The notes: a model not told the origin generated them from the letters alone. A DNA stretch of 64,000 bases from an uncultured Aliarcobacter sp. (GCA_963664305.2 CAXXLV010000001.1:1-64000); one strand, 5' to 3'. Counted from the first letter of the stretch, positions 6,350 to 29,763 are shown. Translations and numbers: made by a program.

Positions 6350-7295
6350 TATCAAGAGTTGGTACAGAATCATTTACAACTATTCCAAATGTACCAGTTG
6401 CAGTATCTCCGTCAACATCAGTTACAACATAATTAACTGTAAAATCAATGTTATCTTCTGTAGTAGCATCTGGATGACTTATTGCTGCAATTTGATTAAC
6501 ATCATATGTATATGTTCCACCTGCATTATTTAATGTAACAGTCATAACAGCAACACCATTTTGAGAAATAGTCATTACATTTCCAGCTACACTTGAAGTT
6601 AATCCTAAAGTAGCATCAGCTGTAATACTTGTTAGAGCAACAGAACCTGCCCCATTTAATCCAAAATTTACTGCTAATGGATTCCCTATACTATCCACAC
6701 CTAAAGTATCATCATCTAATGAAACCAAAGGATTAGCACCAGTAGTAGGAACATCATCAATACTATTAGTAAGAACTGTTTCATCAATAACCGTAGTAAC
6801 AACTTCAGCATCTCTTAAATCAGTAGTGATATTAGTTTCACCAGCAGTTCTATCTTCCAATCTTAAAGGAACAATTCCAACTGGGTCAGTTGTTGTTTGA
6901 TCACCACCAGCAGCTGCTGCATCTAAGTTTTCGATTTGAGCTAAAGTAAGATTAGCTTGTTCATTATTTTGATTTGGAGTATCTTGTAGATTACTTGTTG
7001 CTTGTTCTAATAAGTCGCCAACTTCATTGTTTTTAACAACAGTATCTTCTGGAATTTCTCCAGATAATAATGTAATATCAAAAAGTTGTTCATTACTTCC
7101 AACTACTTGGATTTCTGATGAATTATCAACTAAAGCAACTCTAATTAAATTAGAATTACTATTTGATGAACTTCCAACTATCACATCACCTTCGCTTAGC
7201 ATAGCGCCCACTTTAGCAACTTCTAAAGTTCCATCTGGATGTTTTATAAAAAACGAACCATTTTCGAATGTAATTTTTCCAATTGTATTAGCCAT
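1..7295 (-). CDS. Giant repetitive T1SS-secreted adhesin (LapA/RTX-like, retention module plus DUF5801/T1SS-143-like repeats); partial, runs off the window start
   Basis: Hand translation: ATG at 7295-7293 with RBS AGGAG ~7303-7307; MANTIGKITFENGSFFIKHPDGTLEVAKVGAMLSEGD...LDAAAAGGD...; frame stays open through the repeats to position 1 (~2430 codons in window). Absent from the ORF track, presumably because it has no stop codon in the window. Confidence 0.93.
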   Translation of the reverse strand, partial: MANTIGKITFENGSFFIKHPDGTLEVAKVGAMLSEGDVIVGSSSNSNSNLIRVALVDNSSEIQVVGSNEQLFDITLLSGEIPEDTVVKNNEVGDLLEQATSNLQDTPNQNNEQANLTLAQIENLDAAAAGGDQTTTDPVGIVPLRLEDRTAGETNITTDLRDAEVVTTVIDETVLTNSIDDVPTTGANPLVSLDDDTLGVDSIGNPLAVNFGLNGAGSVALTSITADATLGLTSSVAGNVMTISQNGVAVMTVTLNNAGGTYTYDVNQIAAISHPDATTEDNIDFTVNYVVTDVDGDTATGTFGIVVNDSVPTLDIGVTETTIPTLTTQDADTIDTNTDVVSDTASASFATLFTLTQDMGADVGGTAATLSYALSLAEGTTTSLTSNGEEITLSLVNGVVTGTVAGVTEPIFTVAVDASTGTVTLTQNGPIDHLTEVDGNDADTLTDDNSVTNVGLLLNETGAINLTASATITDGDGDQRTDSETIDISGAISFDDATPTVNVGVTETTIPTLTTQDADTIDTNTDVVSDTASASFATLFTLTQDMGADVGGTAATLSYALSLAEGTTTSLTSNGEEITLSLVNGVVTGTVAGVTEPIFTVAVDASTGTVTLTQNGPIDHLTEVDGNDADTLTDDNSVTNVGLLLNETGAINLTASATITDGDGDQRTDSETIDISGAISFDDATPTVNVGVTETTIPTLTTQDADTIDTNTDVVSDTASASFATLFTLTQDMGADVGGTAATLSYALSLAEGTTTSLTSNGEEITLSLVNGVVTGTVAGVTEPIFTVAVDASTGTVTLTQNGPIDHLTEVDGNDADTLTDDNSVTNVGLLLNETGAINLTASATITDGDGDQRTDSETIDISGAISFDDATPTVNVGVTETTIPTLTTQDADTIDTNTDVVSDTASASFATLFTLTQDMGADVGGTAATLSYALSLAEGTTTSLTSNGEEITLSLVNGVVTGTVAGVTEPIFTVAVDASTGTVTLTQNGPIDHLTEVDGNDADTLTDDNSVTNVGLLLNETGAINLTASATITDGDGDQRTDSETIDISGAISFDDATPTVNVGVTETTIPTLTTQDADTIDTNTDVVSDTASASFATLFTLTQDMGADVGGTAATLSYALSLAEGTTTSLTSNGEEITLSLVNGVVTGTVAGVTEPIFTVAVDASTGTVTLTQNGPIDHLTEVDGNDADTLTDDNSVTNVGLLLNETGAINLTASATITDGDGDQRTDSETIDISGAISFDDATPTVNVGVTETTIPTLTTQDADTIDTNTDVVSDTASASFATLFTLTQDMGADVGGTAATLSYALSLAEGTTTSLTSNGEEITLSLVNGVVTGTVAGVTEPIFTVAVDASTGTVTLTQNGPIDHLTEVDGNDADTLTDDNSVTNVGLLLNETGAINLTASATITDGDGDQRTDSETIDISGAISFDDATPTVNVGVTETTIPTLTTQDADTIDTNTDVVSDTASASFATLFTLTQDMGADVGGTAATLSYALSLAEGTTTSLTSNGEEITLSLVNGVVTGTVAGVTEPIFTVAVDASTGTVTLTQNGPIDHLTEVDGNDADTLTDDNSVTNVGLLLNETGAINLTASATITDGDGDQRTDSETIDISGAISFDDATPTVNVGVTETTIPTLTTQDADTIDTNTDVVSDTASASFATLFTLTQDMGADVGGTAATLSYALSLAEGTTTSLTSNGEEITLSLVNGVVTGTVAGVTEPIFTVAVDASTGTVTLTQNGPIDHLTEVDGNDADTLTDDNSVTNVGLLLNETGAINLTASATITDGDGDQRTDSETIDISGAISFDDATPTVNVGVTETTIPTLTTQDADTIDTNTDVVSDTASASFATLFTLTQDMGADVGGTAATLSYALSLAEGTTTSLTSNGEEITLSLVNGVVTGTVAGVTEPIFTVAVDASTGTVTLTQNGPIDHLTEVDGNDADTLTDDNSVTNVGLLLNETGAINLTASATITDGDGDQRTDSETIDISGAISFDDATPTVNVGVTETTIPTLTTQDADTIDTNTDVVSDTASASFATLFTLTQDMGADVGGTAATLSYALSLAEGTTTSLTSNGEEITLSLVNGVVTGTVAGVTEPIFTVAVDASTGTVTLTQNGPIDHLTEVDGNDADTLTDDNSVTNVGLLLNETGAINLTASATITDGDGDQRTDSETIDISGAISFDDATPTVNVGVTETTIPTLTTQDADTIDTNTDVVSDTASASFATLFTLTQDMGADVGGTAATLSYALSLAEGTTTSLTSNGEEITLSLVNGVVTGTVAGVTEPIFTVAVDASTGTVTLTQNGPIDHLTEVDGNDADTLTDDNSVTNVGLLLNETGAINLTASATITDGDGDQRTDSETIDISGAISFDDATPTVNVGVTETTIPTLTTQDADTIDTNTDVVSDTASASFATLFTLTQDMGADVGGTAATLSYAL

Positions 7296-8702: not shown

Positions 8703-8833
8703 TACTTAACTCTCCTAAAAAATAAAATTATATTTATAGTTATACCATTTTTTAATATTAAAGAAAATTAAGCATTTAGGGCATTTCATTAATTAGTTTT
8801 TAGATACAATTGCCAAAAAAATTTAGGATTATT

Positions 8834-9985
8834 ATGACTGAACAATTAGAAACTTCTTTATGCCATATTGCAAAATTTGCACCATTTGATGATGTTAGTG
8901 GTGCTTCACATTTTCCAATTTATAATACTGGAACTTTTGATTTAAAAAAACAAACTGGCGATAAAATCTATGATTATACAAGAAGTGATAACCCTACTAG
9001 AGAAGTTTTAGAAAACCTTTTTACTCATGTTGAAGGTGGAGCTGGTTGTGTTTGTACTCACACTGGAATTGCTTGTGTATCTTTATTATTTGAAACTGTT
9101 TTAAAAGCAAATTCACATATTTTAGTTGAAGCTGATTGTTATGGTGGAACATTTAGACTTTTAAAAATCTTTAAAGAAAAATATAATATTACAGTTCATT
9201 TTGCAAACTTTTTAGATTTTGAAATGTTAGAACATATTTTAAAAACAAATCCTATTGATTTAGTTTTATGTGAAAGCCCAACAAATCCTGGTTTAAAAAT
9301 TATAGATTTAAAACAAGTAGCTGATTTATCTCACAAATACAATGCTTTATTTGCAGTTGATAACTCACTTGCTACATTTATTTCTCAAAGACCTTTAGAA
9401 TTTGGAGCAGATTTTTCACTTTTCTCAACAACAAAATATATTTCAGGTCATGGAAGCGTAGTTGCTGGTGCAATAGTTGCCGCAACAAAAGAGTTAAGCC
9501 AACAAATCCACTACTATGCAAATGCTCATGGAAGAAGTCAAAATCCAATGGATGTATTTTTAATTAGTCTTGGAATTCCAACTTTAAAAATAAGAATGAT
9601 TGAACATGAAAAAAATTCAATTACAATTGCAAAATTCCTTGAAGAACAAGATTACATAAAAAAAGTAACTCACCCTGCACTTCCATCACACCCTCAGTAT
9701 GAATTAGCTAAAAAACAGATGCAGTTTATTCCAGGTGTTTTTTGTGTAGATTTTTCTAGTGTTGAATTAGCAGAGAAATTTATTGAAAATACAAAAATAT
9801 TTGGTGAAAAATGTTCATTTGGAAGTCCAGATAGTAGAGTTGAAATTCCTGCAAAAATTTCACACGCAAGTTTTTCTAAAGAAGAGTTAGCAGCTATTGG
9901 AATAAGTGATAGTACAGTTAGATTTTCTATTGGTTTAGAAAGTATAGAAGATTTAATAAATGATATTAAACAAGCAGTAAAATAG
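8834..9985 (+). CDS. PLP-dependent trans-sulfuration enzyme, probably cystathionine beta-lyase
   Basis: YDYTRSDNPTR, ESPTNP, VDNS, FSTTKYISGH (PLP Lys); start moved to ATG 8834 behind an AGGA RBS. Confidence 0.88.
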   Translation: MTEQLETSLCHIAKFAPFDDVSGASHFPIYNTGTFDLKKQTGDKIYDYTRSDNPTREVLENLFTHVEGGAGCVCTHTGIACVSLLFETVLKANSHILVEADCYGGTFRLLKIFKEKYNITVHFANFLDFEMLEHILKTNPIDLVLCESPTNPGLKIIDLKQVADLSHKYNALFAVDNSLATFISQRPLEFGADFSLFSTTKYISGHGSVVAGAIVAATKELSQQIHYYANAHGRSQNPMDVFLISLGIPTLKIRMIEHEKNSITIAKFLEEQDYIKKVTHPALPSHPQYELAKKQMQFIPGVFCVDFSSVELAEKFIENTKIFGEKCSFGSPDSRVEIPAKISHASFSKEELAAIGISDSTVRFSIGLESIEDLINDIKQAVK

Positions 9986-16538: not shown

Positions 16539-19391
16539 TTGAAACTTGTTCTAATCTTTTTATTATTTATCTCTTTTTTATATTCAAAAGATTTAAAACC
16601 TATTTCTATTCAATTAAAATGGAAACACCAATTTCAATTTGCAGGATTTTATGTAGCAAAGGAGTTAGGACTATATGAAAAATATGGCTTAGATGTTAGT
16701 TTTGAAGAATTTGATGGAAGTTTTGACCCATTAAATAGAGTTTTAGAACAAAAAAGTAATTTTGGTATAGATGATTCCTCGTTGGTGTATCATAAACTAA
16801 ATGGAAATGATGTTGTTGCTCTTTTTGCTATTTTTAAAACTTCTCCTATTGCCCTATTAAGCCAAGAAAAATTCAATACCATTAAATCTTTAAAAAACAA
16901 AGATATTGAATTTTCATCAAATGAAATTTCAAATATTTCAATTAATGCTATTTTTAAAAGTCAAGATATTCACGTAAATAATATAAAACACACATTCTAT
17001 TCAAAAAGTTTTAAAGAAAAAAAATCTGATGCTATTGTTGGATATTTATCAAATCAACCCCATATTTTGGACAAAGAGAATATAAAATATAATATTTTTT
17101 TACCAAAGGATTATGGATTTGATTTTTATGGAGATATGATTTATACATCATTAGAATTTGCAAAACAAAATCCAATTATAGTAAAAAATTTTATTGAAGC
17201 AACTAAAAAGGGATGGGAATATGCTTTTAAAAATATTCCTTATAGCGTAGATTTAATTTATGAAAAATATAACTCTCAAAATAAAAGTAAAGACTCTTTA
17301 TTTTATGAAGCAAATATACTCAAAGAGTTTAGTGATTATGAAAATAAAGAGTTTGGAGAAATTGATAAATTTAAAGTAAAAGAGATTGCAAATACTATAA
17401 AACTTATCTATCCCCAAAGATTTAGGAATAATGATTTAAATGATTTTATTTGGAATAACAAAGTTGCTTTAATAGATTACTACAAAAAAAATTATTTACA
17501 ATTTAATAAAGATTTTACTGTTTGTATTCAAGATAATCTTTTCCCAATTGATGGAATTGACAATAATAGACTGGTGGGAATTTCTGGTGAAATATTAAAT
17601 ACAATTTCTGAAAAATTTGAATTTAATTTAAAACCAATAAATGCAAAGAATTACCAAGAATCTATCCAAAATGTTTTTGAAAATAAATGTAACATTCTTA
17701 CAATAAGTGCAGAAGATTCATATAAACAATATAAAATCATGGATAGAACCAATTTTTATTTAGAATCAAATTTAGCCATTATTACAAAAATTGACAAACC
17801 ATTTATAGAAAATAACAATAATTTAAATGAAAAAAAATTTGTTGTTAGATATGAAGTTATAAAAAAGTATTTACTCTCTTATTATCCAAATATACAAGTA
17901 GAAATTATTAAAGATTTAGAAAGAATTTCTACAAAATTAAAAGATGATGAAATAGATGGATTTATAACTGATAATATAACTGTTGATAGAATGATTCAAA
18001 AACTAGGTTTCAATGAATTTAAAATTTCAGGATTTATAAATAAAGAACCAATAAAAATCGCATTTGCAGTTTCTAAAGATAAACCTGAATTACGTGAAAT
18101 ATTAAATTTAGGTTTAAGTTATTTTTCAAAAGAAGATATAGAAGCTATTGAAGAAAAATATAAAGTTACTAGATATTCAACTATTATAAATAAAAATCTG
18201 ATTTGGAAGATATTAATTCTATTTACAATTATCTCTTTAACTATTTTATTTTCTATCTTTTTTTTAAAAAGAAAAAATGATGAATTAAATGAATGGTTAA
18301 ATTCAACAATTGAAGGTGTTGCACTTTTTGAAAATAAAAAATTATTAAGGGCAAACACTCAACTTCTAAAAATTTTGGGTTATGATAATTTTAAAGAGAT
18401 ACAAAATAAAACATATTTTGATTTTATTTCTCCAAAAGACCATCATATAATAAAAGAAAAATTAAAAGAAGATCAAGAAGCTTATGAACTTACATTTATA
18501 AAAAAAGATGGTTCTTTAATGGATGGATTGGTAAAAGGTCACAATATAAAAGGTTCAACAAATAAAAGAATTAGTGTAATAATTGATATAACCGAATTAA
18601 AGAAAACTCAAAGAGAGTTAAAAGAGTTAAATCAAACTCTAAACTTGAGAATAGAAGATGAGTTACAAAAGAATCATGAACAAAGAGTTATTATGTTCCA
18701 ACAAGCTAAACTTGCAGAAATAGGTTCTATGATAAATATGATTGCTCATCAATGGAGACAACCTTTAAATAATATCTCTTTACTTGTTAATACAATAATT
18801 ATCAAATATAAAAAGGATACTTTATCTGTTGAAATGTTAAATAAATTAAAAGAGAATTTTCAAGAACAAATAAATTATTTATCAAATACCATTGATGATT
18901 TTCAAAACTTTTTTAAACCAAAAAAAGATAAAGAAATTTTTGTTATAAATGAAATTATTTTATCAACTTTAAATTTGATAAAACCCAAATTTGAAAAAAA
19001 TAGAATAAAAACTAACTTTAATTCAATAACAAATATCAACTACTTTGGTTACAAAAATGAGTTAGCCCAAGTATTATTAACTATTTTAAATAACTCTTTA
19101 GATGCTTTTGAAGAGAATAATGTTTTAGATAAATTAATAGAAATTGATTTAGAAACCCTTAAAGAAAATATAATCATAAAAGTAAGAGATAATGCAGGAG
19201 GCATAAAAGAGGAAAATCTAAAAAAAGTTTTTGATTTATATTTTTCAACAAAAATAGAAAAAAATGGAACAGGATTAGGATTATATATCAGTAAAACTAT
19301 TATTAATAGACATTTTAAAGGTGAAATTAAAATCCATAATATAAAAAAAGGAGCTGAAATTATTATTACTTTTCCTAAAAACAACATTTAA
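16539..19391 (+). CDS. Sensor histidine kinase with NMT1/THI5-like and substrate-binding periplasmic domains plus PAS
   Basis: QLKWKHQFQFAGFYVAKE N-terminus; AHQWRQPL H-box; DNAGG, GTGLGL. Confidence 0.93.
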   Translation: MKLVLIFLLFISFLYSKDLKPISIQLKWKHQFQFAGFYVAKELGLYEKYGLDVSFEEFDGSFDPLNRVLEQKSNFGIDDSSLVYHKLNGNDVVALFAIFKTSPIALLSQEKFNTIKSLKNKDIEFSSNEISNISINAIFKSQDIHVNNIKHTFYSKSFKEKKSDAIVGYLSNQPHILDKENIKYNIFLPKDYGFDFYGDMIYTSLEFAKQNPIIVKNFIEATKKGWEYAFKNIPYSVDLIYEKYNSQNKSKDSLFYEANILKEFSDYENKEFGEIDKFKVKEIANTIKLIYPQRFRNNDLNDFIWNNKVALIDYYKKNYLQFNKDFTVCIQDNLFPIDGIDNNRLVGISGEILNTISEKFEFNLKPINAKNYQESIQNVFENKCNILTISAEDSYKQYKIMDRTNFYLESNLAIITKIDKPFIENNNNLNEKKFVVRYEVIKKYLLSYYPNIQVEIIKDLERISTKLKDDEIDGFITDNITVDRMIQKLGFNEFKISGFINKEPIKIAFAVSKDKPELREILNLGLSYFSKEDIEAIEEKYKVTRYSTIINKNLIWKILILFTIISLTILFSIFFLKRKNDELNEWLNSTIEGVALFENKKLLRANTQLLKILGYDNFKEIQNKTYFDFISPKDHHIIKEKLKEDQEAYELTFIKKDGSLMDGLVKGHNIKGSTNKRISVIIDITELKKTQRELKELNQTLNLRIEDELQKNHEQRVIMFQQAKLAEIGSMINMIAHQWRQPLNNISLLVNTIIIKYKKDTLSVEMLNKLKENFQEQINYLSNTIDDFQNFFKPKKDKEIFVINEIILSTLNLIKPKFEKNRIKTNFNSITNINYFGYKNELAQVLLTILNNSLDAFEENNVLDKLIEIDLETLKENIIIKVRDNAGGIKEENLKKVFDLYFSTKIEKNGTGLGLYISKTIINRHFKGEIKIHNIKKGAEIIITFPKNNI

Positions 19392-19487
19392 TAATTTTTA
19401 AGGAATAAATATTGCATATGAATAAAAATGCAAAAAATGGCTTTCTTTTATACACTTAAATCTTTAAATACGAAAGAAATAATAAAA

Positions 19488-20867
19488 ATGAAAATAAAAT
19501 ATAAACTACTTTTCCTATTTTTTGTTGCACAAATAGGATTTATCATCATTGCAATTACGGCACTAAATTCTGGAACTGATTTAACAATAATCTTCACCTC
19601 ACTTTTTTCTCTATTTTTAGGATTGATTTGTTTTTCATTTTTTCGCTCTATCACAGAAGATTTTAAAAATTTCAACAAATCATTTGAAAATTTTTCAAAC
19701 TTTATAAATTCAAAAAACAATAAATTTATTCCTTATGAGATAGAAGGTAATAGTGGTGTTGCTCAACTATCAAGAAAATTAAATGAAATATCACTAGAAA
19801 TTGATAAAAGAATGAAATATGACATGAAAGTTTTAGGGGAAATTGTAATAACTATGGACAGAGTTGAACAAGGAATTTATAGTTCAAGAATAAAATCAGA
19901 AACAACAAATCCAATGATTATGACGCTAAGAAACACTATAAATAAAATGTTAGATGAAGTTAGCAAAGATATGAACAATCTTGTAAATATTTTGGATTCT
20001 TATTCAAAAGATGATTTCACAAAACAAGTTGAAATTGATGAAAAAGTAAAAGGTGAAATGTTAAAAGTATTAACAAGCATAAACTTTTTAGGAGAAACCC
20101 TAAGTCTTAATGCTAAAAAGAATTTAGATAATGGTTTGATATTAGAAAAAAATTCTAAAAACATGATTGAAAGTGTAAACTTCTTCGGACAAAAAGCAAA
20201 TGAACAAACTTCTTCTTTAGAAAAAACAACAAATACTCTCTCACAAATTACAGATACTACAAAAAATAATACAGAAAATGCACAAAAAATGCATGAGTTA
20301 GGAAAAGTAGTAAAAGTTGCAGTTACAAATGGTCAAGATTTAGCTTCAAAAACTGCTAATTCTATGGACCAAATAAACAAAGAAATTACATTTATAACAG
20401 AAGCAATATCAATTATCGACCAAATTGCATTTCAAACAAATATTTTATCACTTAATGCAGCCGTTGAAGCTGCAACTGCTGGAGAAGCTGGACGTGGATT
20501 TGCAGTTGTTGCAGCAGAAGTGAGAAATCTTGCAAACAGAAGTGCAGAAGCTGCACGTGAAATAAAAGGAATAGTTGAAAATGCTACGACAAAAGCAAAT
20601 GAAGGGAAAAAAATAAGTGATATGATGATTGAAGGTTATGAAAAATTAAATATGGATATCAATCAAACGATAGAGATTATTCAAGATGTAAGTAGTTCAA
20701 GTAATAAACAACTAGAAGGTATTGAAGAAATAAATAGAATGATAAATGTATTAAACCAATTATCCTTAGAAAATGTTAATCAAGCAAAAAATGTTGCAAA
20801 AATTACAACTACAACACAAAAAATGGCTGAAGAACTTGTATCTGAAGCAAAAAATAAAAAATTCTAA
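19488..20867 (+). CDS. MCP without a periplasmic sensor domain (CetA-like)
   Basis: Two closely spaced TM helices then the signalling domain; likely start ATG 19488 (track gives 19428). Confidence 0.9.
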
Positions 20868-20882
20868 TCAAAGGAGTTTATT

Positions 20883-21278
20883 ATGAGTAACAATGAAACT
20901 TTATTAAGTGAATATGCTTTTTTAGTAAGTGAAACTAATGAAAAAGGTATTATAACTTTTGCAAATAACGATTTTTGTGAAATTGCCGGTTTTACATTGG
21001 ATGAATTAATAGGAAAACCTCACAATGTTGTAAGACATTCAGATATGCCTAAAAGTGCTTTTAAAGATTTATGGGAAACTGTAAAAAAAGGAGAAATCTG
21101 GACTGGTTATGTAAAAAATAGAACTAAAGATAATGGTTATTATTGGGTTTTTGCAACGGTTTATCCTTTTGAAGGTTGTGATGGAGAAAAAGGTTATTTA
21201 AGTTGTAGAAAAAAAGCTTCTCAAGAAGAGATAGAAATTTATGAAAATCTTTATAAAGAGTTAAAAGAAAAAGATTAA
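20883..21278 (+). CDS. Stand-alone Aer-type PAS domain protein (CetB-like)
   Basis: GIITFAN..F, GKPHNVVRHSDMP..F..LW, W.GYVKN, YYWVFA. Confidence 0.9.
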   Translation: MSNNETLLSEYAFLVSETNEKGIITFANNDFCEIAGFTLDELIGKPHNVVRHSDMPKSAFKDLWETVKKGEIWTGYVKNRTKDNGYYWVFATVYPFEGCDGEKGYLSCRKKASQEEIEIYENLYKELKEKD

Positions 21279-21435
21279 AAACTCAAACATTAAATTAACA
21301 ATTTTTTTCTAAAATTTCACAAATGGTCATAAAATAATTTATCAACTATACAAAATAAATTTTATGTACAAACAGTCTCATCCTACTAATTTTCTGAATG
21401 TAATCTCTAAATTTAATAAGAAGTGACCATTTTAT

Positions 21436-22302
21436 TTAATACAAATTTTTATTTATAAAATAACAATTATCTAAAAATGAACTATTCAAAATATATACTA
21501 TTATAGAAATCATTAATACAAAAACGACTATTCCATAAAAGTATCCATTGTTTGAAAAACTTTTAAAAATATTTCTTTTATTAAACTTTTTTCTAATCAA
21601 AGATGGTTTGTTAAATTTGACCATTACATTTTCACAGGCAACTTCACAAAGTCCACATTGAACACATCTTATATCAAAACCTGCTTTTATATCAAGGTCA
21701 TCAATAGGACAGATTTTTACACATTTTTCACAACTTATACAACTCTCTTTATCAAAAAACTCAAAAGTTTGTTTTTTCTCTTGTGGCAAAATCGCACTTA
21801 CAAAAAAATAAGGGCATAAAATAGAACAATACCACGCACGAAATACTAAAAATATACTTGTAAATCCTGTTGTTAAAATTCCAACAAAAATTGAAGCTGT
21901 ATCAAATTTTGTAAAATTTAAAAACAAATCAACAGCTGATGTAAAATACGAAATAGTTGAAAATGCCAAAATAAAAGCAAATGACATAATCGTAAAAAAA
22001 AGGACAAAAGGATTTTTTAGTTTCATAGCAATAATCGAAGCAAGAGAAGTTGGACAAAAATATCCACAAAAAAATCTTGATATTGTTAAATTTAATCCTA
22101 CTAATAATCCAATAAAAAGAGAAATTACAATATAAATCAACTGATGAGTTGAAGCTTCAAAAGCCATGAATAAAAACTCAAATCTATGAAACTCAAAATT
22201 GAACATCAACAAATGAATATCATTAAAACTTAACCATGGAAATAGAATATACAAAAAAAAGGTAATCAATAATGATGGAACTAAAATCTGTTTTTTTGCC
22301 AT
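21436..22302 (-). CDS. Membrane 4Fe-4S protein (CcoG/FixG/NapH-like)
   Basis: FCGYFCP, YCSILCP, CISCEKCVKICP, CVQCGLCEVAC. Confidence 0.9.
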   Translation of the reverse strand: MAKKQILVPSLLITFFLYILFPWLSFNDIHLLMFNFEFHRFEFLFMAFEASTHQLIYIVISLFIGLLVGLNLTISRFFCGYFCPTSLASIIAMKLKNPFVLFFTIMSFAFILAFSTISYFTSAVDLFLNFTKFDTASIFVGILTTGFTSIFLVFRAWYCSILCPYFFVSAILPQEKKQTFEFFDKESCISCEKCVKICPIDDLDIKAGFDIRCVQCGLCEVACENVMVKFNKPSLIRKKFNKRNIFKSFSNNGYFYGIVVFVLMISIIVYILNSSFLDNCYFINKNLY

Positions 22303-22754
22303 AAGTCTATCCTTTGTTCAGGTGGTAAAGTACCATTTTCATATAGATTGTTTTTTAGATTATTTATCAATCTACTAATCAGATTTTCGTTAAAAGTGTG
22401 ATATCTTTTTACAAGTTCGCTTTTTTTATCAAAAATCAAAATATAAGGCACACTTTTTGTCACTCCAAAATTTTTAGAATCATTAAGTGAAATAGATATT
22501 GTTTTTAGATTAGAAGTTTGTTTTATTGAAGTTGGAATATCTTCATCTACAAAAAGTAAAGTTATGAAAATCTCACTATTTTTTTCTCCTAAAGAGACTA
22601 AATAATCATTTGTCTTAATACAAACAGGACACCATGAAGTTACAAAAGCAACTATATTTATTTTATCTTTTTCTAAATTTTCTAAAGAAAAAGAGGTAGC
22701 AAGAGCCACCTCTTTTAGTATTAAAAATAGAAAAATTATCTTGACAATTTTCAT
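22281..22754 (-). CDS. Exported thioredoxin-fold (TlpA-like) protein
   Basis: Signal peptide, SWCPVC, cis-Pro VP. Confidence 0.85.
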   Translation of the reverse strand: MKIVKIIFLFLILKEVALATSFSLENLEKDKINIVAFVTSWCPVCIKTNDYLVSLGEKNSEIFITLLFVDEDIPTSIKQTSNLKTISISLNDSKNFGVTKSVPYILIFDKKSELVKRYHTFNENLISRLINNLKNNLYENGTLPPEQRIDLWQKNRF

Positions 22755-24079
22755 TTATTTGTATCTTTTAAAGAAAGAATCCAATCCACAAGTATTAAAG
22801 CTTCATCAGCTGTTACATCTTGAGCTGGCATTGGAATAACATCATATTTATTTACACTTCCATATTGAATAGAGTGAATTAAAACATCTTTGTTTCTTTC
22901 TTTATTTGAAACTTCTAAATAAGAAGGTCCAACCAATTTAACATCTACACTATGACAAGCTAAACACCCTTTTGATTCAGCTAAAATTACTGGATTTTTT
23001 AAATCTATTGCAGGCTTATTAGCTAATTCTTCTTTATATTTTTTATATTCTGCAATTGAAGCTGTCATAAACTCAGAAGTAGCTTGAGCTTGAAGTGCAA
23101 GTGGTTCTTCAAAAGATACAACTCTTACACCTTCTCTTGTTGTTGCCATTAAAAAAATTGAAACTACCACAAGAGCTATTGCTCTTAAAGCTGTTTGAGA
23201 AGTTACTACCTCATCATTAAATTTATTTAATACATATAAAAATGCAATAATTAAAAATATTGAAGAGATAAATGGTAAATAAATAAATCCTGTATGCATT
23301 AAAGCTTCACTAATACGTGCTGTAAATACAAATGGTAATAAAGGCATTACAACAATATTTAAAGGAGTTGCAAGTAAGAACCATTTTTTACCTTGGCTAA
23401 TTGCAATTTTTCCTATTTCAATCTCACCTTTTTTTACCCATCTAGCACCTATAAATATCATAACAACACCTGTTGCCATAAATGCTGTTAAAAAGAAATT
23501 TAAAAGTCTAAATCCAGTAACAGGAGTAAACATAATGTCCCAAATATTATTTATAGTTGCAAATAATTCTGGTTGCATATAAAGATTTGTCATTGACATA
23601 AATACAAAAGGTAAAGTAAAAAATGCTAATACAGCTGATAATCCAATTGCTATATGAAAACCTTTATGATTTTGTAAAGCATGCCATGAAAATTTATAAG
23701 CATAAGAAAGTAAAAAGGCAATGATATTTCCATAAATAATATGTAAAATATGTGGACTAACTTTCAAAATTGCTGTATAAAAAAATCCTGTAAAAAGTAC
23801 AGAGATTACAAGTAAAGGAGCAACTCCCCATAAAGCACCCATATTTTCTGATACTGTTGTGTAGTTTGTCATTCTATATGCAAACTTATCATAATTTGAA
23901 TCTTTTTTAAATACACCCATAATATTATAAATAACAGAAGCAGTTGAAGCACCAATTAACATATAAATAAAACAGATATGAACAACAAAAACTATAATTC
24001 CTAAAATACTAAAAAACTCTAAAGGAAGTCCTAAAGTTGGTGTAATTAATGGAATATCAAATGGTAATTTCCAATTCAT
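22751..24079 (-). CDS. CydA-like polytopic membrane protein with C-terminal class I cytochrome c
   Basis: ~9 TM helices, TM1 His (VVHICF), TTREGVR, GCLACH...VGPSY...IPMP. Confidence 0.8.
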   Translation of the reverse strand: MNWKLPFDIPLITPTLGLPLEFFSILGIIVFVVHICFIYMLIGASTASVIYNIMGVFKKDSNYDKFAYRMTNYTTVSENMGALWGVAPLLVISVLFTGFFYTAILKVSPHILHIIYGNIIAFLLSYAYKFSWHALQNHKGFHIAIGLSAVLAFFTLPFVFMSMTNLYMQPELFATINNIWDIMFTPVTGFRLLNFFLTAFMATGVVMIFIGARWVKKGEIEIGKIAISQGKKWFLLATPLNIVVMPLLPFVFTARISEALMHTGFIYLPFISSIFLIIAFLYVLNKFNDEVVTSQTALRAIALVVVSIFLMATTREGVRVVSFEEPLALQAQATSEFMTASIAEYKKYKEELANKPAIDLKNPVILAESKGCLACHSVDVKLVGPSYLEVSNKERNKDVLIHSIQYGSVNKYDVIPMPAQDVTADEALILVDWILSLKDTNK

Positions 24080-25476
24080 TTTATAACTCCTTTAGTATTT
24101 AAAGATTTAATATAAGCTGCAAGTGCATCTTTTTCAGCTTCAGTTCCAACAAATGGAGGCATATATGGAGTTCCACCACCAGGAAGATTATTTAACCTAT
24201 TTCTAATAGCATCATGAGACCAACCTGTTGTTAAGAATTTAAGTCCATTAATACCATTTTGGGTATGACAGATACGACACTCTATTTGGAAAATAGACTT
24301 CCCTACTTCAATAATATTTGATTTATCTTCATTTACTCGTTTTTTCTTTTCATCTAAAAAAACAGCATGTTCTAAAATACCAACCTTATTTAAGTATGGA
24401 ACATCTGTAACTCTAATTCCATTTGAATACATATAGTTATAAATTAAAAAAGGTTTTCGTATAAACTCTCTTACTCTTTCTTCATATCCCCAAAGTACTA
24501 AAAATCCAGCAACCATTAAACTAGCTGCTAAATAAGGCATTCTTTTTGGAGAAAAGTAAGCAATAATTGTTGTGATAATAATACTTCCACCAATACCAAT
24601 AGCAATAAGATACATTAAATCAAATCTATCTTCAAATGCTCTTGTCATAACAGCTGTTGGTATCATGGCAAGTGCTGCTGCTGGAATTTCTGTGTAATAC
24701 CAATAACCAAAGATTGCACTAATAGGCACTGTAATCAGCATAATTCCAGCTAAAAATTTTACTAATCTTGCTTTTGCTTCCTTGTCTTCTTCATTTTTTG
24801 AAAAAGTTGCGATGATCCAAGTCCACATTATTGCAAGTGCTGCTGCAAATGCTATTGATGTAAATGTTCTAAAGGCAAGTGAAGGCCACCAAGTTGGATT
24901 AAATAAAGCATTGTTATAGTTTACATTTCCAGGATAAACTTGAGGGTCAACCCAAGGTTGTCCATCAAAATTTGGAGTAAGCATAAATGCTAAAATTGCA
25001 GTGATAATAACCATAGTTAACCATGAAGAAATAGCATAATAAACACCAATTCTTATAGTTTTAGCTCTACCTTGTGGTGTTTCTTGATTTTTTTTCCAAC
25101 TCATAAATAGTAAAAGTAAAAGTACAACTTCAAAGTTAAATACAATCCACTCTATAAACCATTTCCAGAAAAATACTCTAATAAGCCCACCTATTGCATT
25201 TGGACTTAAAATATTGGCATGAATCCACATACCAACACCTGTTAATGCTCCAACTGATGTAGATACAATAAAGAAAACCATAACAACTTTAAATGTTAAG
25301 TTATATGCTGCCATATCGTTTTTCTTATTTGCCCACCAAGCCATTGCAGCTAATACAATAGATCCACCAACTGCTCCTCCATGAGATACAAAAACATGAA
25401 TAATTGCGTTTATAGCCATTAGCATTCTTTGACCTATAAAAGGCATCTCAAAAATGGGGTAATCAAACATACCCAA
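24076..25476 (-). CDS. Cytochrome bd subunit I-like protein with C-terminal c-type heme
   Basis: IIHVFVSH, VGALTG, IEWIVFNFE, AFMLTP, FNP, ERVREFIRKPF (GWxxxExGRQPW-like), CRICH...YMPPF. Confidence 0.88.
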   Translation of the reverse strand: MGMFDYPIFEMPFIGQRMLMAINAIIHVFVSHGGAVGGSIVLAAMAWWANKKNDMAAYNLTFKVVMVFFIVSTSVGALTGVGMWIHANILSPNAIGGLIRVFFWKWFIEWIVFNFEVVLLLLLFMSWKKNQETPQGRAKTIRIGVYYAISSWLTMVIITAILAFMLTPNFDGQPWVDPQVYPGNVNYNNALFNPTWWPSLAFRTFTSIAFAAALAIMWTWIIATFSKNEEDKEAKARLVKFLAGIMLITVPISAIFGYWYYTEIPAAALAMIPTAVMTRAFEDRFDLMYLIAIGIGGSIIITTIIAYFSPKRMPYLAASLMVAGFLVLWGYEERVREFIRKPFLIYNYMYSNGIRVTDVPYLNKVGILEHAVFLDEKKKRVNEDKSNIIEVGKSIFQIECRICHTQNGINGLKFLTTGWSHDAIRNRLNNLPGGGTPYMPPFVGTEAEKDALAAYIKSLNTKGVIK

Positions 25477-25559
25477 ATCCTCCCTATATATATATTTGCT
25501 TATGCAAATGCTATTTTAATGCTACTGTGTTAATTATTCGTTTGTGTTTTTTAGGGATT

Positions 25560-26225
25560 TTAAATGTTGATTTTATAACCATTTACTCTATTTGAGATAA
25601 TGATATCATTTCCTAGAATTTGTCTAAGTTTATGTATATGAAAACGGATTACACCATTTTTATTATTACTATTTGCAGGATAAACTCCATTTTCTAAATT
25701 TTCAGAAGAGACAAAAAAACCTCTAAATTTAAGTAAATAATCTAAAATTAAAAGAGGTTTTTCTCCTAAATGAACTTCTGTTTTATCAATCAAAATTTTT
25801 TTATGAAATATCTCATATTCGATATTTTTTCTTATATGAATAGAATCTGAATAAATTTTGAATTGTCTTCTAATAAGTGCTTTTATACGCAATAAAATCT
25901 CTTTTTCATCTATATTTTTTATAATACATTCATCACAGCCAGATAAAAAAGATGGTTTAATAATATTTGGAATTGAAGCTATAACCATTTTCATAGTCAT
26001 ATCATGATATTCATTTAATAATTGAATTAACTGAAATCTAGGAAGAGATTTTTCATTTATATTTATTAGATACAAATCATATAAATTATTATAAATACAT
26101 TCCAAAAATTCACTATTATTACTACAAATATCTACTGAAAAATCATTATTTCTTAAAATTTCTATAATTTGAGAAATCGAATTATCACTACTTTCTAAAA
26201 CTAAAATTTTTAATACCTTCAACAA
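25560..26225 (-). CDS. Atypical OmpR-family response regulator lacking the phospho-acceptor Asp
   Basis: LVLESS replaces the acidic pocket, YLININ replaces LLD; winged helix ending NGYKI. Confidence 0.85.
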   Translation of the reverse strand: MLKVLKILVLESSDNSISQIIEILRNNDFSVDICSNNSEFLECIYNNLYDLYLININEKSLPRFQLIQLLNEYHDMTMKMVIASIPNIIKPSFLSGCDECIIKNIDEKEILLRIKALIRRQFKIYSDSIHIRKNIEYEIFHKKILIDKTEVHLGEKPLLILDYLLKFRGFFVSSENLENGVYPANSNNKNGVIRFHIHKLRQILGNDIIISNRVNGYKINI

Positions 26226-26327
26226 CTCTCTCCAATTTTACGATTAATAAAATTGTAAAATAAATCTATTAATTATCTGTTAGTTGAAATAGTATAGAAT
26301 CACAAAAAAATTATATTTGGTAAAAAA

Positions 26328-26882
26328 ATGATAAAACAAGCACAAAAAAACAATATAACAAATATCTCTTTTCTTATATTTAATGCTATTCACAATATTG
26401 CAAACACACTAACTGGTGAAAATGAAGAAAAAAAAATACTAAAAACTTTAGACTTTTATATAACTATGGAGATTAATAGATTAAGTTATAACAATATCTA
26501 TACTTATGAAATAGAAAATCAAATAGTTGCTTTGATTCTTGTTTATAATTCAAATGATGTAAAAAAGCTTGATACTCCTATTTTAGAACATCTAAAAACA
26601 AAAAATATTTATTTAGACTCATTTGAAAAAGAGTGTTTTGAAGATGAATTTTATATAGATACAGTTAGTGTTAGTCCAAATTTTCAAGGAAAAGGAATAG
26701 CAAAAGAACTATTTATTTATATAGAAGAAAAAGCAAAAGAGTTGGGATTTGATAAAGTTTCATTGCTTGTTGATTTTGAAAATCCAAAAGCTTTAGCTTT
26801 ATATGAAAAACTAGGATTTCAAAAAAACAATATTTTAGAAGTTTCAAACCACAATTATCATCATATGATAAAAATGGTCTGA
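26328..26882 (+). CDS. GNAT N-acetyltransferase
   Basis: VSVSPNFQGKGIAK, N.KALALYEKLGF. Confidence 0.92.
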   Translation: MIKQAQKNNITNISFLIFNAIHNIANTLTGENEEKKILKTLDFYITMEINRLSYNNIYTYEIENQIVALILVYNSNDVKKLDTPILEHLKTKNIYLDSFEKECFEDEFYIDTVSVSPNFQGKGIAKELFIYIEEKAKELGFDKVSLLVDFENPKALALYEKLGFQKNNILEVSNHNYHHMIKMV

Positions 26883-26887
26883 ATTAT

Positions 26888-28339
26888 TTAAAAAGCTTTT
26901 GAATTTAAAAGTAAAAATAGAGCTAAAATAAACATAAAAATTGGAGCAATAATTTCTAAAATATTTGCAAATTTTTGTGATTTATTTGAAACTTTATGAA
27001 GAGTTACTCCTAAAAAAGATGAAGCAAAAATCACTGTTGCCATTCCTAAACTTATACTAATACTTGACAAAATCACGGAAAAATATGTTTTTAATAAAAA
27101 CGCATAAACAAAAAGTAAAACTGTTCCAGGACAAGGTATTATTCCAGCTGTTAAAACAAAAATCAAATCTTGTTTTTTACTTCTTTTTGTATCTATTATT
27201 GGTTTATTTTGACTTGTTCTTACAAAATTCATATTTTGTAGATTTAGTGAAAATTTTGTAGTTTCTAAAGGCACACTACAAGAACAACAAACACATGATT
27301 TTTTAGTTAATTTTCTATATAAAATATATAAAGCTAAAAGCATTATAATAACTGCACAAAATGCTGTTATATAAGAAATTGAATTTTCCATAAATCTATT
27401 TAAAACACTTTCAAGTACAAAAACAGAAAATAAAACTAAAATCAAAGCTCCAATAATATGAACAAATGCTGTAACCAATGAAATAACAAAAGCTTCTAAA
27501 TAAGAACTTTTTTGAGAAGAAAAATATGAAAATGCTAAAGCTTTTCCATGACCTGGACCAAAAGCATGAATAACTCCATATAAAAATGAAGCCATAAGTA
27601 AAAATATTAAAGCAAATTTATCTCCATTTTCTATATCAACTAAATACCTTTTTATATTTTTTACAAATTTATCCAATAAATTTTCATCTTTTATTTGTTC
27701 GTTCTTAACTTGAACTATCTCTTCTTTTTTATCTTCAATTTTTTCTTCTTTTTTTACTTCAGTGATATTTTCTTGAAGAGTTAAAGTTGGAGCATTTATA
27801 GTATATGAAACTTCATTTATATCAGTACTTTTAGAGATTTTATAAGGAATATTAAATAACTGTTTTTTATCTTCAAATACAATTAGAAAATAACTCAAAT
27901 CATCAAAAATCTTTATTGTTAAAATATTTTTATCGTAAATTTTATAGTTTAAATCGATTTTATAATCAAATGATAGATTTGAATTTTTGTAACTTAGTTT
28001 ATAATCTTTTACTTCAAAAGGAAGAGAGTTTTTATTTTTTTCATTAGTATAAGAGATTGTTGTAAGAAAATTTTTTGGTTTTATATAATCAATTAAAGAT
28101 TGTTCGATGAGTTTCAACTCTTTTTCTTCAAAAGTTCCATTTAAATTTAAATCATAAATTTTAAATAACTCTTCTTGAAACTCTTTTGCAAAACTCCAAT
28201 TTACTTTTAGAGTTTTTATATACTCTTTATCTGCTTTTACTTGTGTTGTAACATGAGTTTTTGGACTATAAATGGAGCATAAAGAACATCCAAAAAGGAT
28301 GCCTTTAAAAAAAATCAGTATTAATAAAAGACGAATCAT
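26888..28339 (-). CDS. DUF1007-like periplasmic domain fused to a NicO/RcnA-type metal transporter (ZevA-ZevB-like fusion)
   Basis: Signal peptide then CSLC; YGVIHAFGPGHGK, GIIPCPG; Cys-rich loop CVCCSC. Confidence 0.82.
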   Translation of the reverse strand: MIRLLLILIFFKGILFGCSLCSIYSPKTHVTTQVKADKEYIKTLKVNWSFAKEFQEELFKIYDLNLNGTFEEKELKLIEQSLIDYIKPKNFLTTISYTNEKNKNSLPFEVKDYKLSYKNSNLSFDYKIDLNYKIYDKNILTIKIFDDLSYFLIVFEDKKQLFNIPYKISKSTDINEVSYTINAPTLTLQENITEVKKEEKIEDKKEEIVQVKNEQIKDENLLDKFVKNIKRYLVDIENGDKFALIFLLMASFLYGVIHAFGPGHGKALAFSYFSSQKSSYLEAFVISLVTAFVHIIGALILVLFSVFVLESVLNRFMENSISYITAFCAVIIMLLALYILYRKLTKKSCVCCSCSVPLETTKFSLNLQNMNFVRTSQNKPIIDTKRSKKQDLIFVLTAGIIPCPGTVLLFVYAFLLKTYFSVILSSISISLGMATVIFASSFLGVTLHKVSNKSQKFANILEIIAPIFMFILALFLLLNSKAF

Positions 28340-29265
28340 TTATAACTATTTGCTATTTCATTTGCCGTTTTTAATAAATCATTTGACCAGTTTTCAGATA
28401 AAGGGTCAATTGCAACAACATTTGCTCCAATATTTTTAGAGATAGTTTGTGCACTTTTTTGAGAAAATTGAGGAGAAACAAAAACTATTTTTATATTATG
28501 TTTTTTAGCCTCTTCTATTAATTCAACTAATTCATTAGGTTTTGCCTCTTTTCCTTCAATTTCAATAGAAATTTGTTCTAACTCATATCTTTTTGCAAAA
28601 TATCCCCAAGATGGATGAAAAACCATAAAAGCTTTATCTTTATATGGAGATAATATATTTTTAATCTCTTTGTCTAACTCATCAAGCTCTTTTATAAATT
28701 CATCATAATTTGTTTTATAAAAATCACTATTTTGTGCATCTACTTTTATCATAGCTTCATAAATATTTTTTGCTTGAATTTTTACTAAAATAGGGTCTAA
28801 CCAAATATGTGGGTCTAAACCCGTATGGTCATGAGCATGTTCTTCATGTCCATCTTCTTCATGGTCATCATGTTTTGCTTCATCTTCATGCTCATGTTTT
28901 ACATCAGAATTTACTTTTTCATCATGATGTTCATGTTTAGGCATTTCCATTTTTTCAATACCAATTGTTGTATCTACAAATAGAGTATTTTTTGCACTTT
29001 GTTTAAATTTTTCTAACCAAACTTTTTCTGTTGTATCACCTGCTAAAAAATAAACTTTTGAAGCAACTAAAGATTTCATTTGAGATGGTTTTGGCTCATA
29101 ATTATGAGGAGATACTCCTGGTTTAACCATAACATTTATCTCATATTTATCTTTTACAATTTTTTGAACAAAATATTTTTGAGGTAAAATATTTACAGTT
29201 AACTCTGGCTTGTTTGCATATAGAAATGATACAAATATCATAAATAAGAATATTACTCTTTTCAA
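28336..29265 (-). CDS. znuA: Zinc ABC-type substrate-binding protein
   Basis: SPHNYEP, His/Glu/Asp-rich loop, DPHIWLDP, FHPSWGYF. Confidence 0.9.
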   Translation of the reverse strand: MKRVIFLFMIFVSFLYANKPELTVNILPQKYFVQKIVKDKYEINVMVKPGVSPHNYEPKPSQMKSLVASKVYFLAGDTTEKVWLEKFKQSAKNTLFVDTTIGIEKMEMPKHEHHDEKVNSDVKHEHEDEAKHDDHEEDGHEEHAHDHTGLDPHIWLDPILVKIQAKNIYEAMIKVDAQNSDFYKTNYDEFIKELDELDKEIKNILSPYKDKAFMVFHPSWGYFAKRYELEQISIEIEGKEAKPNELVELIEEAKKHNIKIVFVSPQFSQKSAQTISKNIGANVVAIDPLSENWSNDLLKTANEIANSYK

Positions 29266-29282
29266 AATTTTTCCTTTTAAAT

Positions 29283-29349
29283 TTGCAACTAGGTTGCAAT
29301 AATTTTTGTGATTTTAATCCAACTTTTCTTTAATGCAACTTAGTCGTAA
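29283..29349. promoter_or_regulatory. Candidate Zur operator: 7-3-7 palindrome plus a degenerate second copy
   Basis: TTGCAAC-TAG-GTTGCAA at 29283-29299; ATGCAAC-TTA-GTCGTAA at 29333-29349; between divergent znuA and the Fur-family gene. Confidence 0.7.
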
Positions 29350-29385
29350 AACTAATTTTAAAAAAAAATTGCTATAATCTTAACT

Positions 29386-29763
29386 ATGAATATATTAGAT
29401 AATTTAACAAACATTACAAATATCAAGCTTACAAGTGCTAGAAAATCTATTTTAGAACTTTTGGTAAATTCAAATAAACCTTTATCATATGAAGATATGA
29501 GAGAGTATATTTCTATGGACAAAGCAACATTTTATAGAAATATTACTATTTTTGAAGAGGAAAATTTGATTAGTTCTTTTGAATCAAATGATAAAAAAAG
29601 ATACTTTGAGATTAAAAAAAATCAACATTCTCATTTTATCTGTTCAGAGTGTTCAAAAATAGAGTGTATTCATGAAAAATTAGATTTTGTTATGCCCGGA
29701 TATAAAATCGAAAATATTATTATCAAAGGTATATGTAAAAATTGTATGGAAGGAAAAGAATGA
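29386..29763 (+). CDS. Fur-family transcriptional regulator, probably Zur
   Basis: LTSARKSIL, ATFYRNI, HSHFICSEC, GICKNC; divergent from znuA. Confidence 0.88.
   Translation: MNILDNLTNITNIKLTSARKSILELLVNSNKPLSYEDMREYISMDKATFYRNITIFEEENLISSFESNDKKRYFEIKKNQHSHFICSECSKIECIHEKLDFVMPGYKIENIIIKGICKNCMEGKE

Follow-up and report, generated by a model that had tools for sequence, protein, structure and literature searches.

A cytochrome bd-like operon of probable OR-C1 type in an uncultured Aliarcobacter sp.: two CydA-fold subunits with cytochrome c domains and lineage-specific companion genes

A 64,000-nucleotide stretch of DNA from an uncultured Aliarcobacter sp. (GCA_963664305.2 CAXXLV010000001.1:1-64000), hereafter the window, contains a four-gene operon at 21436-25476. 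It encodes two relatives of the cytochrome bd subunit CydA that each end in a cytochrome c domain (subunits A and B), a periplasmic thioredoxin-fold protein (the Trx-like protein) and a shortened membrane ferredoxin of the CcoG/FixG/NapH family. The host genome belongs to the Arcobacteraceae, and its closest named relatives are Aliarcobacter. We place the locus in the OR-C1 group of the bd superfamily by its agreement with the published description of that architecture, and hold this placement with high confidence. Both the family and its proposed electron donor were described in 2021, and the locus thus belongs to a known, biochemically uncharacterised family. Taken as a whole, the observations are best explained by an OR-C1-type, cytochrome-c-fed terminal reductase with lineage-specific helpers, an account that we consider somewhat more probable than all others together.

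Two CydA-fold subunits with cytochrome c domains

Subunit A consists of a CydA-fold domain with eight transmembrane (TM) helices and a C-terminal mono-haem cytochrome c domain (CRICH at 400-404, Met439). Pfam recognised the cytochrome domain alone (Cytochrome_CBB3, residues 390-456, E 1.9e-9). A phmmer search against solved structures matched the first ~200 residues of A to CydA of Geobacillus thermodenitrificans (5doq_A, E 1.2e-7), and a profile of A built from 23 sequences matched the same chain over residues 10-236 (E 1.1e-11). The AlphaFold2 (AF2) model of A has a predicted local distance difference test score (pLDDT) of 73 and a predicted template-modelling score (pTM) of 0.67, and is built of eight long helices and, after them, a small helical domain. 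A Foldseek search of the Protein Data Bank (PDB) using this model revealed CydA chains at all of the top 10 positions (E 1e-6 to 5.4e-4, template-modelling scores 0.46-0.57), followed by CydB chains.

In HMMER alignments to Geobacillus CydA, from which the residue correspondence was counted by hand, H27 of A corresponds to H21, E109 to E101, E116 to E108, E337 to E378, R340 to R381 and P342 to P383. F202 stands at the position of H186, so that this ligand of haem b558 is lost. In E. coli CydA, we take the equivalents of H27, E109, E116, E337 and R340 to be H19, E99, E107, E445 and R448; the E. coli numbering was bridged through an alignment of the CydA of the host genome itself to 6rko_A. In the alignment of 23 A sequences, H27, H32, E109, E116, R203, E337, R340 and P342 are all invariant. 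A wider set gave a similar picture. It comprised the 107 representatives of at least 400 residues among the 150 matches listed, the 43 shorter ones being omitted as fragments. R203 is present in 107/107 of these, E109 in 106/107, E116 in 105/107, H27 in 104/107, and E337 and R340 in 100/107 each, while H32 is found in 90/107, with Gln in its place in 14.

Neither H186 and M393 nor a Q-loop is retained in A. The alignments to Geobacillus CydA contain no counterparts of the His and Met ligands of haem b558, and the AF2 helices, only eight in number, leave no long periplasmic loop between TM6 and TM7, in line with the absence of a Q-loop in the first, sequence-only reading of this DNA. That reading had also put an Arg at the place of the b558 His. 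The His is indeed absent, but F202 is the residue aligned with it, and the invariant R203 follows directly. The motifs that it quoted are all present, namely the TM1 His (H27), IEWIVFNFE (with E109 and E116), FMLTP, REFIRKPF and CRICH...YMPPF in A, CLACH...IPMP in B and WCPVC in the Trx-like protein.

The loops between TM1 and 2, 3 and 4, 5 and 6, and 7 and 8 of A, as located from the sequence and the AF2 helices, are rich in Lys and Arg. By this charge pattern, the N-terminus and the cytochrome c domain lie on the periplasmic side of the membrane, where covalent haem attachment requires them to be.

Subunit B has the same design, with an eight-TM CydA fold and a C-terminal cytochrome c551-like domain (CLACH at 372-376, Met417). 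A comparison of the A and B profiles by hhalign gave 96.3% probability and E 1.7e-9 over 388 columns, which supports paralogy over the whole length and the earlier description of B as a diverged paralogue of A. The first ~200 residues of B matched 5doq_A with E 4.2e-5 in phmmer, and the profile of B matched it with 8.6e-4. Cytochrome c551 was matched at ~1e-13 with the single sequence and ~1e-22 with the profile, and Pfam gave nothing significant in B. The AF2 model of B (pLDDT 82, pTM 0.71) likewise shows eight long helices and a small helical domain. Its top 10 Foldseek matches are all CydA chains (E 2.6e-6 to 6.3e-4), and CydB chains and c551 chains also match, so that a CydA fold was found by sequence and by predicted structure for both subunits. 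B lacks both TM3 Glu residues in the alignment. Its R191 aligns with R203 of A, and the sole TM1 His kept in B, H34, stands opposite H32 of A in the hhalign alignment and not opposite H27.

Two features of these residues were observed beside the main comparison. H32, the second TM1 His of A, lies five residues past the haem ligand and has no counterpart in canonical CydA. R203 of A and R191 of B form a family-specific Arg that adjoins the lost b558 His position and is likewise missing from canonical CydA.

The open reading frame (ORF) listing confirmed four overlapping genes, with overlaps of 4, 4 and 22 nt (Table 1). The length of 466 aa given earlier for A holds for the ORF counted from TTG. 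However, homologues of A have 464 aa and begin with MFDYP, which makes the ATG at 25470 the more likely start, and the real protein is probably one of 464 aa, as judged from these sequences; a profile search of the genome matched 24079-25470. No cydB was found in the locus, as had been stated before. When the whole genome was searched in six frames with PF01654 (Cyt_bd_oxida_I), the sole match was a canonical cydA on contig 2, with cydB beside it. In the interval 20800-26500, a promoter consensus scan gave 31 promoter-like sites, where shuffled sequence led one to expect 38, and a terminator scan gave 3 sites against 1.5 expected, all within genes; the boundaries of the operon cannot be set from these scans.

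Table 1. Genes of the operon and the adjacent regulator gene in the window
Feature	Coordinates	Strand	Basis and length
Subunit A (OR-C1a-like)	24076-25476	minus	ORF, 466 aa from TTG
Subunit B (OR-C1b-like)	22751-24079	minus	ORF, 442 aa
Periplasmic thioredoxin-fold protein (Trx-like)	22281-22754	minus	ORF, 157 aa
Shortened CcoG/FixG/NapH-family membrane ferredoxin	21436-22302	minus	ORF, 288 aa
OmpR-type response regulator, atypical receiver	25560-26225	minus	Pfam and alignment, 221 aa

Relatives, companion genes and surroundings

Among the candidates scored, 461 database relatives of A and 209 of B were found at E<=1e-3, and the features described go well past what chance would produce. An exhaustive search with the membrane domain of A yielded 455 clusters (at 50% identity) with E<=1e-3, 275 with <=1e-10 and 52 with <=1e-30. 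The number of CxxCH motifs per protein in the set of 107 ranges from 0 to 8, with none in 9 proteins, one in 60, two in 18 and eight in 14. Mean column identity is 64% for A and 60% for B, in sequences down to ~40% identity and with dozens of invariant residues.

Gene context was scanned in one genome per species, which gave 56 related loci. Their hosts include Aliarcobacter and other Arcobacteraceae, Sulfuricurvum, Sulfurimonadaceae, Sulfurovum, Leptospiraceae, Hydrogenothermaceae, Sulfurihydrogenibium and Magnetococcales, as well as Zoogloea, Azonexus, Thiothrix, Sulfuricella, Methylophilaceae, Acidovorax and Alphaproteobacteria. B directly follows A in 53/53 loci with at least 400 nt of room, the remaining 3 of the 56 ending too early, and this adjacency spans Campylobacterota, Spirochaetota, Aquificota and Pseudomonadota. 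In a tree of A (quick IQ-TREE, midpoint-rooted, SH-aLRT support only), the sequences of Campylobacterota and Pseudomonadota fall into separate groups.

The neighbours in Pseudomonadota are of another kind. In 12 loci (L041, L043-L052 and L054), ORFs of one BLAST cluster lie upstream on the opposite strand. L044, the sole locus of these that was tested, has there a His kinase with a PilS-like 6-TM domain and a regulator with receiver and Fis-type helix-turn-helix (HTH) domains (4034-5873), which we take to be a RegB/RegA-like pair. Downstream lie truncated globins (cluster c19, 5 loci; tested with Pfam in L039 at 8799-9167 and L043 at 8797-9336), sigma-54 activators (cluster c27, 3 loci; tested with Pfam in L037 and L039), a DUF2244 membrane protein (L044, 8939-9415) and TonB-dependent receptors (L049, L012). 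The kinase and regulator pair, the globins and the sigma-54 activators point to redox or O2/NO physiology, and the pair, the globins and the DUF2244 protein may offer hints as to when the cell employs the enzyme.

Within the Arcobacteraceae, the A profile (E<=1e-20) matched 61/184 genomes, in two score classes. Type 1 comprises 14 genomes with 746-766 bits, namely the host, twelve congeneric genomes and one genome of another genus (G069). Type 2 comprises 47 genomes with 193-224 bits, one of them with split matches, and forms a very distant clade in the tree of A. Our description of type 2 comes from four loci (L064, L065, L066 and L067). The A-like protein there has 445-455 aa and one CxxCH, and matched the A profile with 100% probability, E 1e-42 and 29% identity. 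It keeps the equivalents of H27, H32, E109, E116, R203 and E337/R340 and lacks H86, a candidate extra ligand of A that is not conserved outside the type 1 clade. Its partner, of 397 aa and without CxxCH, is a distant homologue of B (85.5% probability, E 5.7e-6, first 204 columns). Neither a Trx nor a ferredoxin gene was found at any of the four type 2 loci examined.

In the congeneric genome G001 (L065:5411-8894), the type 2 pair adjoins an orthologue (E 3.5e-118) of the response regulator listed in Table 1. In order and length, the two properties compared, the neighbouring ORFs of L065 match the GNAT, NicO/DUF1007, ZnuA, Fur and NhaA genes that flank the operon in the window. Either OR-C variant thus seems able to occupy this one chromosomal slot, which suggests cassette replacement. 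A different arrangement was seen in a Sulfurovum metagenome-assembled genome (L011), where a type 2-like A/B pair (654-2000, minus strand) is divergent from type 1 A, B, Trx and ferredoxin genes (2587-6863, plus strand).

The Trx-like protein has a hydrophobic, signal-like N-terminus and a WCPVC motif. It matched Pfam AhpC-TSA (E 1e-7), with Redoxin and Thioredoxin under their cut-offs, and it stayed far under the cut-off of all NCBIfam subfamilies compared (for example, DsbE with 15.8 against 123). Its matches in the PDB are thioredoxins, and these are weak.

The ferredoxin matched Pfam Fer4_18 (E 2.6e-12) and Fer4_5. Its motifs CGYFCP, CSILCP, CISCEKCVKICP and CVQCGLCEVAC, i.e., two CX3CP and two 4Fe-4S cluster motifs, align with those of full-length CcoG. 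It scored 93.1 bits with TIGR02745 against a cut-off of 316.7, over profile positions 124-319 of 435, and no Pfam match to FixG_C (PF11614) was found in it. By these sequence comparisons it is a shortened relative of CcoG and not an equivalog. The host genome has two full-length CcoG genes besides it. One full-length CcoG/FixG gene lies in the window itself at 61338-62642 on the plus strand (TIGR02745 435 bits, FixG_C present), and the operon ferredoxin is 26% identical to its product.

Both companion genes follow the A-B pair in 23/24 Campylobacterota loci where at least 2400 nt of sequence are available; the one without them is L021, from Sulfuricurvum. In the other phyla neither was found after the pair in any of 21 loci (0/21, phmmer E<=1e-5). 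The short ferredoxin (E<=1e-25) occurs in exactly those 14/184 Arcobacteraceae genomes that have a type 1 A, ~2.6 kb from A. Because the two genes are absent outside Campylobacterota and dispensable for type 2, we read their products as lineage-specific helpers in maturation or redox maintenance and not as core subunits. Campylobacterota use System II to mature their c-type cytochromes, and this pathway needs thiol reductants in the periplasm, so it is a reasonable reading that the Trx-like protein serves as a dedicated reductant for the two membrane-anchored apocytochrome domains. By analogy with its relatives, the ferredoxin could act as a reductant relay, as a quinol-linked donor (as in NapH/NosH) or in metal handling (as in CcoG). 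We also considered the pair as assembly factors of a copper site, after TlpA and CcoG, and set this aside for want of evidence for copper; H86, the candidate extra ligand, is conserved in the type 1 clade alone.

The regulator gene lies 83 nt upstream of A on the same strand. Its product matched Pfam Trans_reg_C (E 6.4e-9), while Response_reg reached 21 bits against a cut-off of 30. Aligned with DrrD (1kgs), it carries Asn in place of the phospho-acceptor Asp, and Ser replaces the second acidic residue. It matched the atypical Helicobacter pylori regulator HP1043 (2hqr, E 2.2e-4), and by this analogy is probably independent of phosphorylation. In L002-L007 the gene stands upstream of A, in L008 its place is downstream of the ferredoxin, and homologues adjoin the type 2 operon in L065-L067. 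Because it is linked to the genes in two arrangements, and to type 2 as well, this atypical regulator probably controls the operon, or the OR-C genes in Arcobacteraceae more generally.

Other features of the window were noted in passing. A metal-homeostasis cluster upstream of the regulator (26888-29763) encodes a NicO/DUF1007 fusion, a Fur-family regulator and a binding protein of the ZnuA type, the last of which has an insert rich in His, Asp and Glu. Three plus-strand genes (16539-21278) converge on the 3' end of the operon, and encode a 950-aa sensor kinase with periplasmic NMT1 and SBP_bac_3 domains and a PAS domain, a 479-aa methyl-accepting chemotaxis protein and a 131-aa stand-alone PAS protein. 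Positions 1-6000 have a G+C content of ~35%, against 22-30% elsewhere in the window, and a strongly negative AT skew.

Proposed function and alternatives

We propose that A holds a bd-type two-haem active site, which would be ligated by H27 and E337 and would receive protons from the cytoplasm via E109 and E116. B would take the place of CydB in a complex of two paralogous CydA-fold subunits. We infer such an A-B heterodimer from the invariable adjacency of the genes, from the paralogy of their products and by analogy with CydAB and with CydAA', a pair of paralogous CydA subunits. With the entry module for haem b558 and quinol (H186, M393 and the Q-loop) gone, electrons would enter from the periplasm via covalent c haems on the C-termini of A and B, their likely source being the bc1/soluble cytochrome c branch. 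The path would then lead from periplasmic cytochrome c to haem c of B and/or A, on to the b/d-type haems of A and finally to O2. At the buried site a small oxidant would be reduced, and the reduction of O2 to water is the most probable reaction among those considered; on whether O2 is the physiological substrate, as the analogy with canonical enzymes suggests, we are evenly divided. Since the host genome already has a cbb3 oxidase (one ccoN) and a quinol bd oxidase (one cydAB), the enzyme would be a third terminal oxidase. The sequence-only reading had arrived at a similar picture, a reductase fed by cytochrome c that acts on O2, NO or some other substrate and comes with redox or maturation partners of its own, and we infer a function of this kind.

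Several observations weigh against this account. PF01654 gave no match to A even at E<=10, and reached only E 2.8 and 6.9 bits, against a cut-off of 26.2, with B. The A and B profiles gave no significant score against the qOR1-type CydA and CydB of the host genome itself, so the connection with CydA is drawn from the Geobacillus-type enzyme and from the fold. The model of A has moderate confidence, and its template-modelling scores to CydA are only ~0.5. The alignment of the E337/R340/P342 block is weak (domain score -0.8) and rests on the E-x-x-R-x-P motif. O2 as the substrate is extrapolated from canonical bd oxidases, and no biochemical characterisation of any OR-C member was found in the literature searched, which lay outside subscription journals. 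RNA-library contigs from three metatranscriptome runs of one study (X5, X11 and X14) lie on all four genes with a likeness of at least 92%, and one further covering run (X1) is probably DNA. However, such contigs also lie on the flanking genes, many of them only 90-95% alike, and they may come from DNA carry-over or from relatives; they are compatible with expression of the operon and are no evidence for it. As to the Pfam result, the PF01654 miss reflects divergence and not absence of homology. It could also be taken as a sign that A and B are decaying, non-functional CydA duplicates with chance CxxCH motifs, given that the Pfam CydA model recognises neither protein. The reading frames are nevertheless uninterrupted, both in the window and in related loci from four phyla. 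The column identities and invariant residues given above, the 455 cluster representatives at E<=1e-3 and the matches of the cytochrome c domains to solved c551 and c6 folds also speak against decay. Conservation at this level effectively refutes that explanation, to which we attach a minimal probability.

The substrate and the composition of the enzyme allow two further explanations. With the same architecture, the substrate might be NO or some other small oxidant (H2O2 or nitrite, for example), in which case the protein would be a cytochrome-c-fed detoxifying or respiratory reductase of oxic-anoxic interfaces. We consider this unlikely, though it is the strongest of the competitors. Truncated globins and sigma-54 activators follow the pair in some Pseudomonadota, and Azonexus, Zoogloea, Sulfuricella, Methylotenera, Sulfuricurvum and Thiothrix belong to groups that respire nitrate. 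The host genome also has no NorB-like haem-copper protein above the Pfam cut-off, its matches being ccoN and one of 22.8 bits. (The latter, a COX1-like match on contig 2, was rejected as a haem-copper oxidase; it is a 523-aa membrane protein beside an ABC ATPase.) The residues conserved here nonetheless belong to the site of O2 reduction and the proton channel in bd oxidases. Globins and sigma-54 activators accompany the pair at a minority of the loci, a role in sensing or handling O2 would suit them equally well, and no nir, nor or nos genes were found beside the pair among the sample of neighbours examined in the 56 loci.

Alternatively, the four proteins of Campylobacterota might form one machine, a four-subunit respiratory complex in which the Trx-like and Fe-S proteins are stoichiometric redox subunits and provide a transmembrane electron path between cytoplasmic 4Fe-4S clusters or menaquinol and the periplasmic c haems and a bd-type active site, and in which H32 and R203 may hold an extra cofactor. 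The gene overlaps suggest translational coupling, and the linkage of both genes to the pair in Campylobacterota and the exact co-occurrence of the short ferredoxin with type 1 A would fit such a complex. So would the status of the ferredoxin as a dedicated paralogue beside two full-length CcoG genes, and its NapH/NosH-type relatives are proposed quinol dehydrogenases. Against this, both proteins are missing in 21/21 loci of other phyla and in L021, and type 2 occupies the same slot without them, from which it follows that the core enzyme works without the Trx-like protein and the ferredoxin. The conserved Glu residues of the proton channel favour chemistry at a buried haem site, and characterised CcoG is an assembly factor (a cupric reductase) and not a subunit. 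We therefore regard a four-subunit complex as improbable, more so than NO or another oxidant as the substrate, and prefer a two-subunit cytochrome-c-fed reductase with accessory proteins.

To our knowledge, all characterised bd oxidases take electrons from quinol. If the preferred explanation is true, a cytochrome-c-fed bd enzyme would tie the bc1/cytochrome c branch to the copper-free oxygen chemistry of bd oxidases, which is also tolerant of NO and sulfide, and would represent a further class of cytochrome c oxidase. The family concerned is diverse, with its 455 clusters at 50% identity, and is found in bacteria of oxic-anoxic interfaces. Should the four proteins instead form a single complex, this would be a respiratory enzyme type without a characterised counterpart, beyond a bd oxidase with another donor. 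The lineage-specific helpers and the apparent swap of two variants in one slot provide natural comparison strains. Because deletion mutants have been made in the Aliarcobacter group, as in the CemR study of A. butzleri (PMC11334517), the hypothesis of 2021 can be tested there directly.

Comparison with known systems

OR-C1a and OR-C1b were defined by phylogenomics in the preprint of Murali, Gennis & Hemp (bioRxiv 10.1101/2021.01.16.426971), whose main text proposes cytochrome c as the donor. According to this description, OR-C1a has no quinol site, typically eight helices and a C-terminal periplasmic extension with haem c. OR-C1b is encoded adjacently, and E99/E107 are present in 'a' and not in 'b', with six residues between the Glu pair as in the Geobacillus enzyme; OR-C1 is confined to bacteria. 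The locus agrees with this description point by point, in its helices, the Glu pair and its spacing, CxxCH, a 'b' paralogue without the Glu residues and the loss of the quinol site, and nothing in the description contradicts it. The assignment to a haem-c-fused, quinol-site-less OR-C group made by the sequence-only reading is thus borne out as far as that description goes. Even the haem count, with up to 8 CxxCH among the 107 relatives, equals the 'up to 8' of the preprint (10.1101/2021.01.16.426971). The words thioredoxin, ferredoxin, Epsilonproteobacteria and Campylobacter were not found in its main text, so the module of Trx and short CcoG, the atypical regulator and the second variant with its haem-c-less partner may be new details, or may already be in the supplements. 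In their relevant passages, papers of 2024 and 2026 cite OR-C as a phylogenetic class only. The mention of a 'cytochrome bd-like' enzyme in the CemR paper (PMC11334517) refers in its context to canonical CioAB and not to an OR-C locus, and a Gallionellaceae paper mentions cydAB only. No characterised orthologue with an unrelated function was found in the literature searched.

The quinol oxidases CydAB (qOR; Geobacillus 5DOQ and E. coli 6RKO) have in common with the locus the fold, a pseudo-symmetric two-subunit design and the residues that serve the haem b595/d site and the proton channel, namely the TM1 His, the TM3 Glu pair and the E..R.P motif. In contrast to them, the locus has neither the b558 ligand pair nor the Q-loop, one helix fewer, a CydA paralogue instead of CydB and a predicted c haem on both subunits, and its divergence is so great that PF01654 gives no qualifying score. 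Because H186, M393 and the Q-loop are not retained, we did not file the locus as a qOR. The replacement of CydB by a CydA paralogue has a precedent in CydAA' of Caldivirga maquilingensis (qOR4a/qOR4b), which was characterised in the same preprint (10.1101/2021.01.16.426971); in both systems the 'b' subunit is without a quinol site. As described there, however, CydAA' has a quinol site on its A subunit, has no haem c and is archaeal. The 'bd-like oxidases' of Nitrospirota (OR-N) are quinol-site-less CydA relatives too, with the first four helices in common and likewise uncharacterised, but differ by their description in having 10 or 14 helices, no fused haem c and other operon partners.

The cbb3 oxidases (CcoNOP) resemble the locus in function and not by descent. 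Their catalytic fold is unrelated, and in the OR-C locus no CuB is expected and the ferredoxin is shortened and lacks FixG_C. Both systems nevertheless would use membrane-anchored periplasmic c haems as the point of entry for electrons and occur in microaerobic hosts, both are genetically associated with a CcoG-family ferredoxin, and the cytochrome c domain of A matches the Pfam family of cbb3 subunit III.

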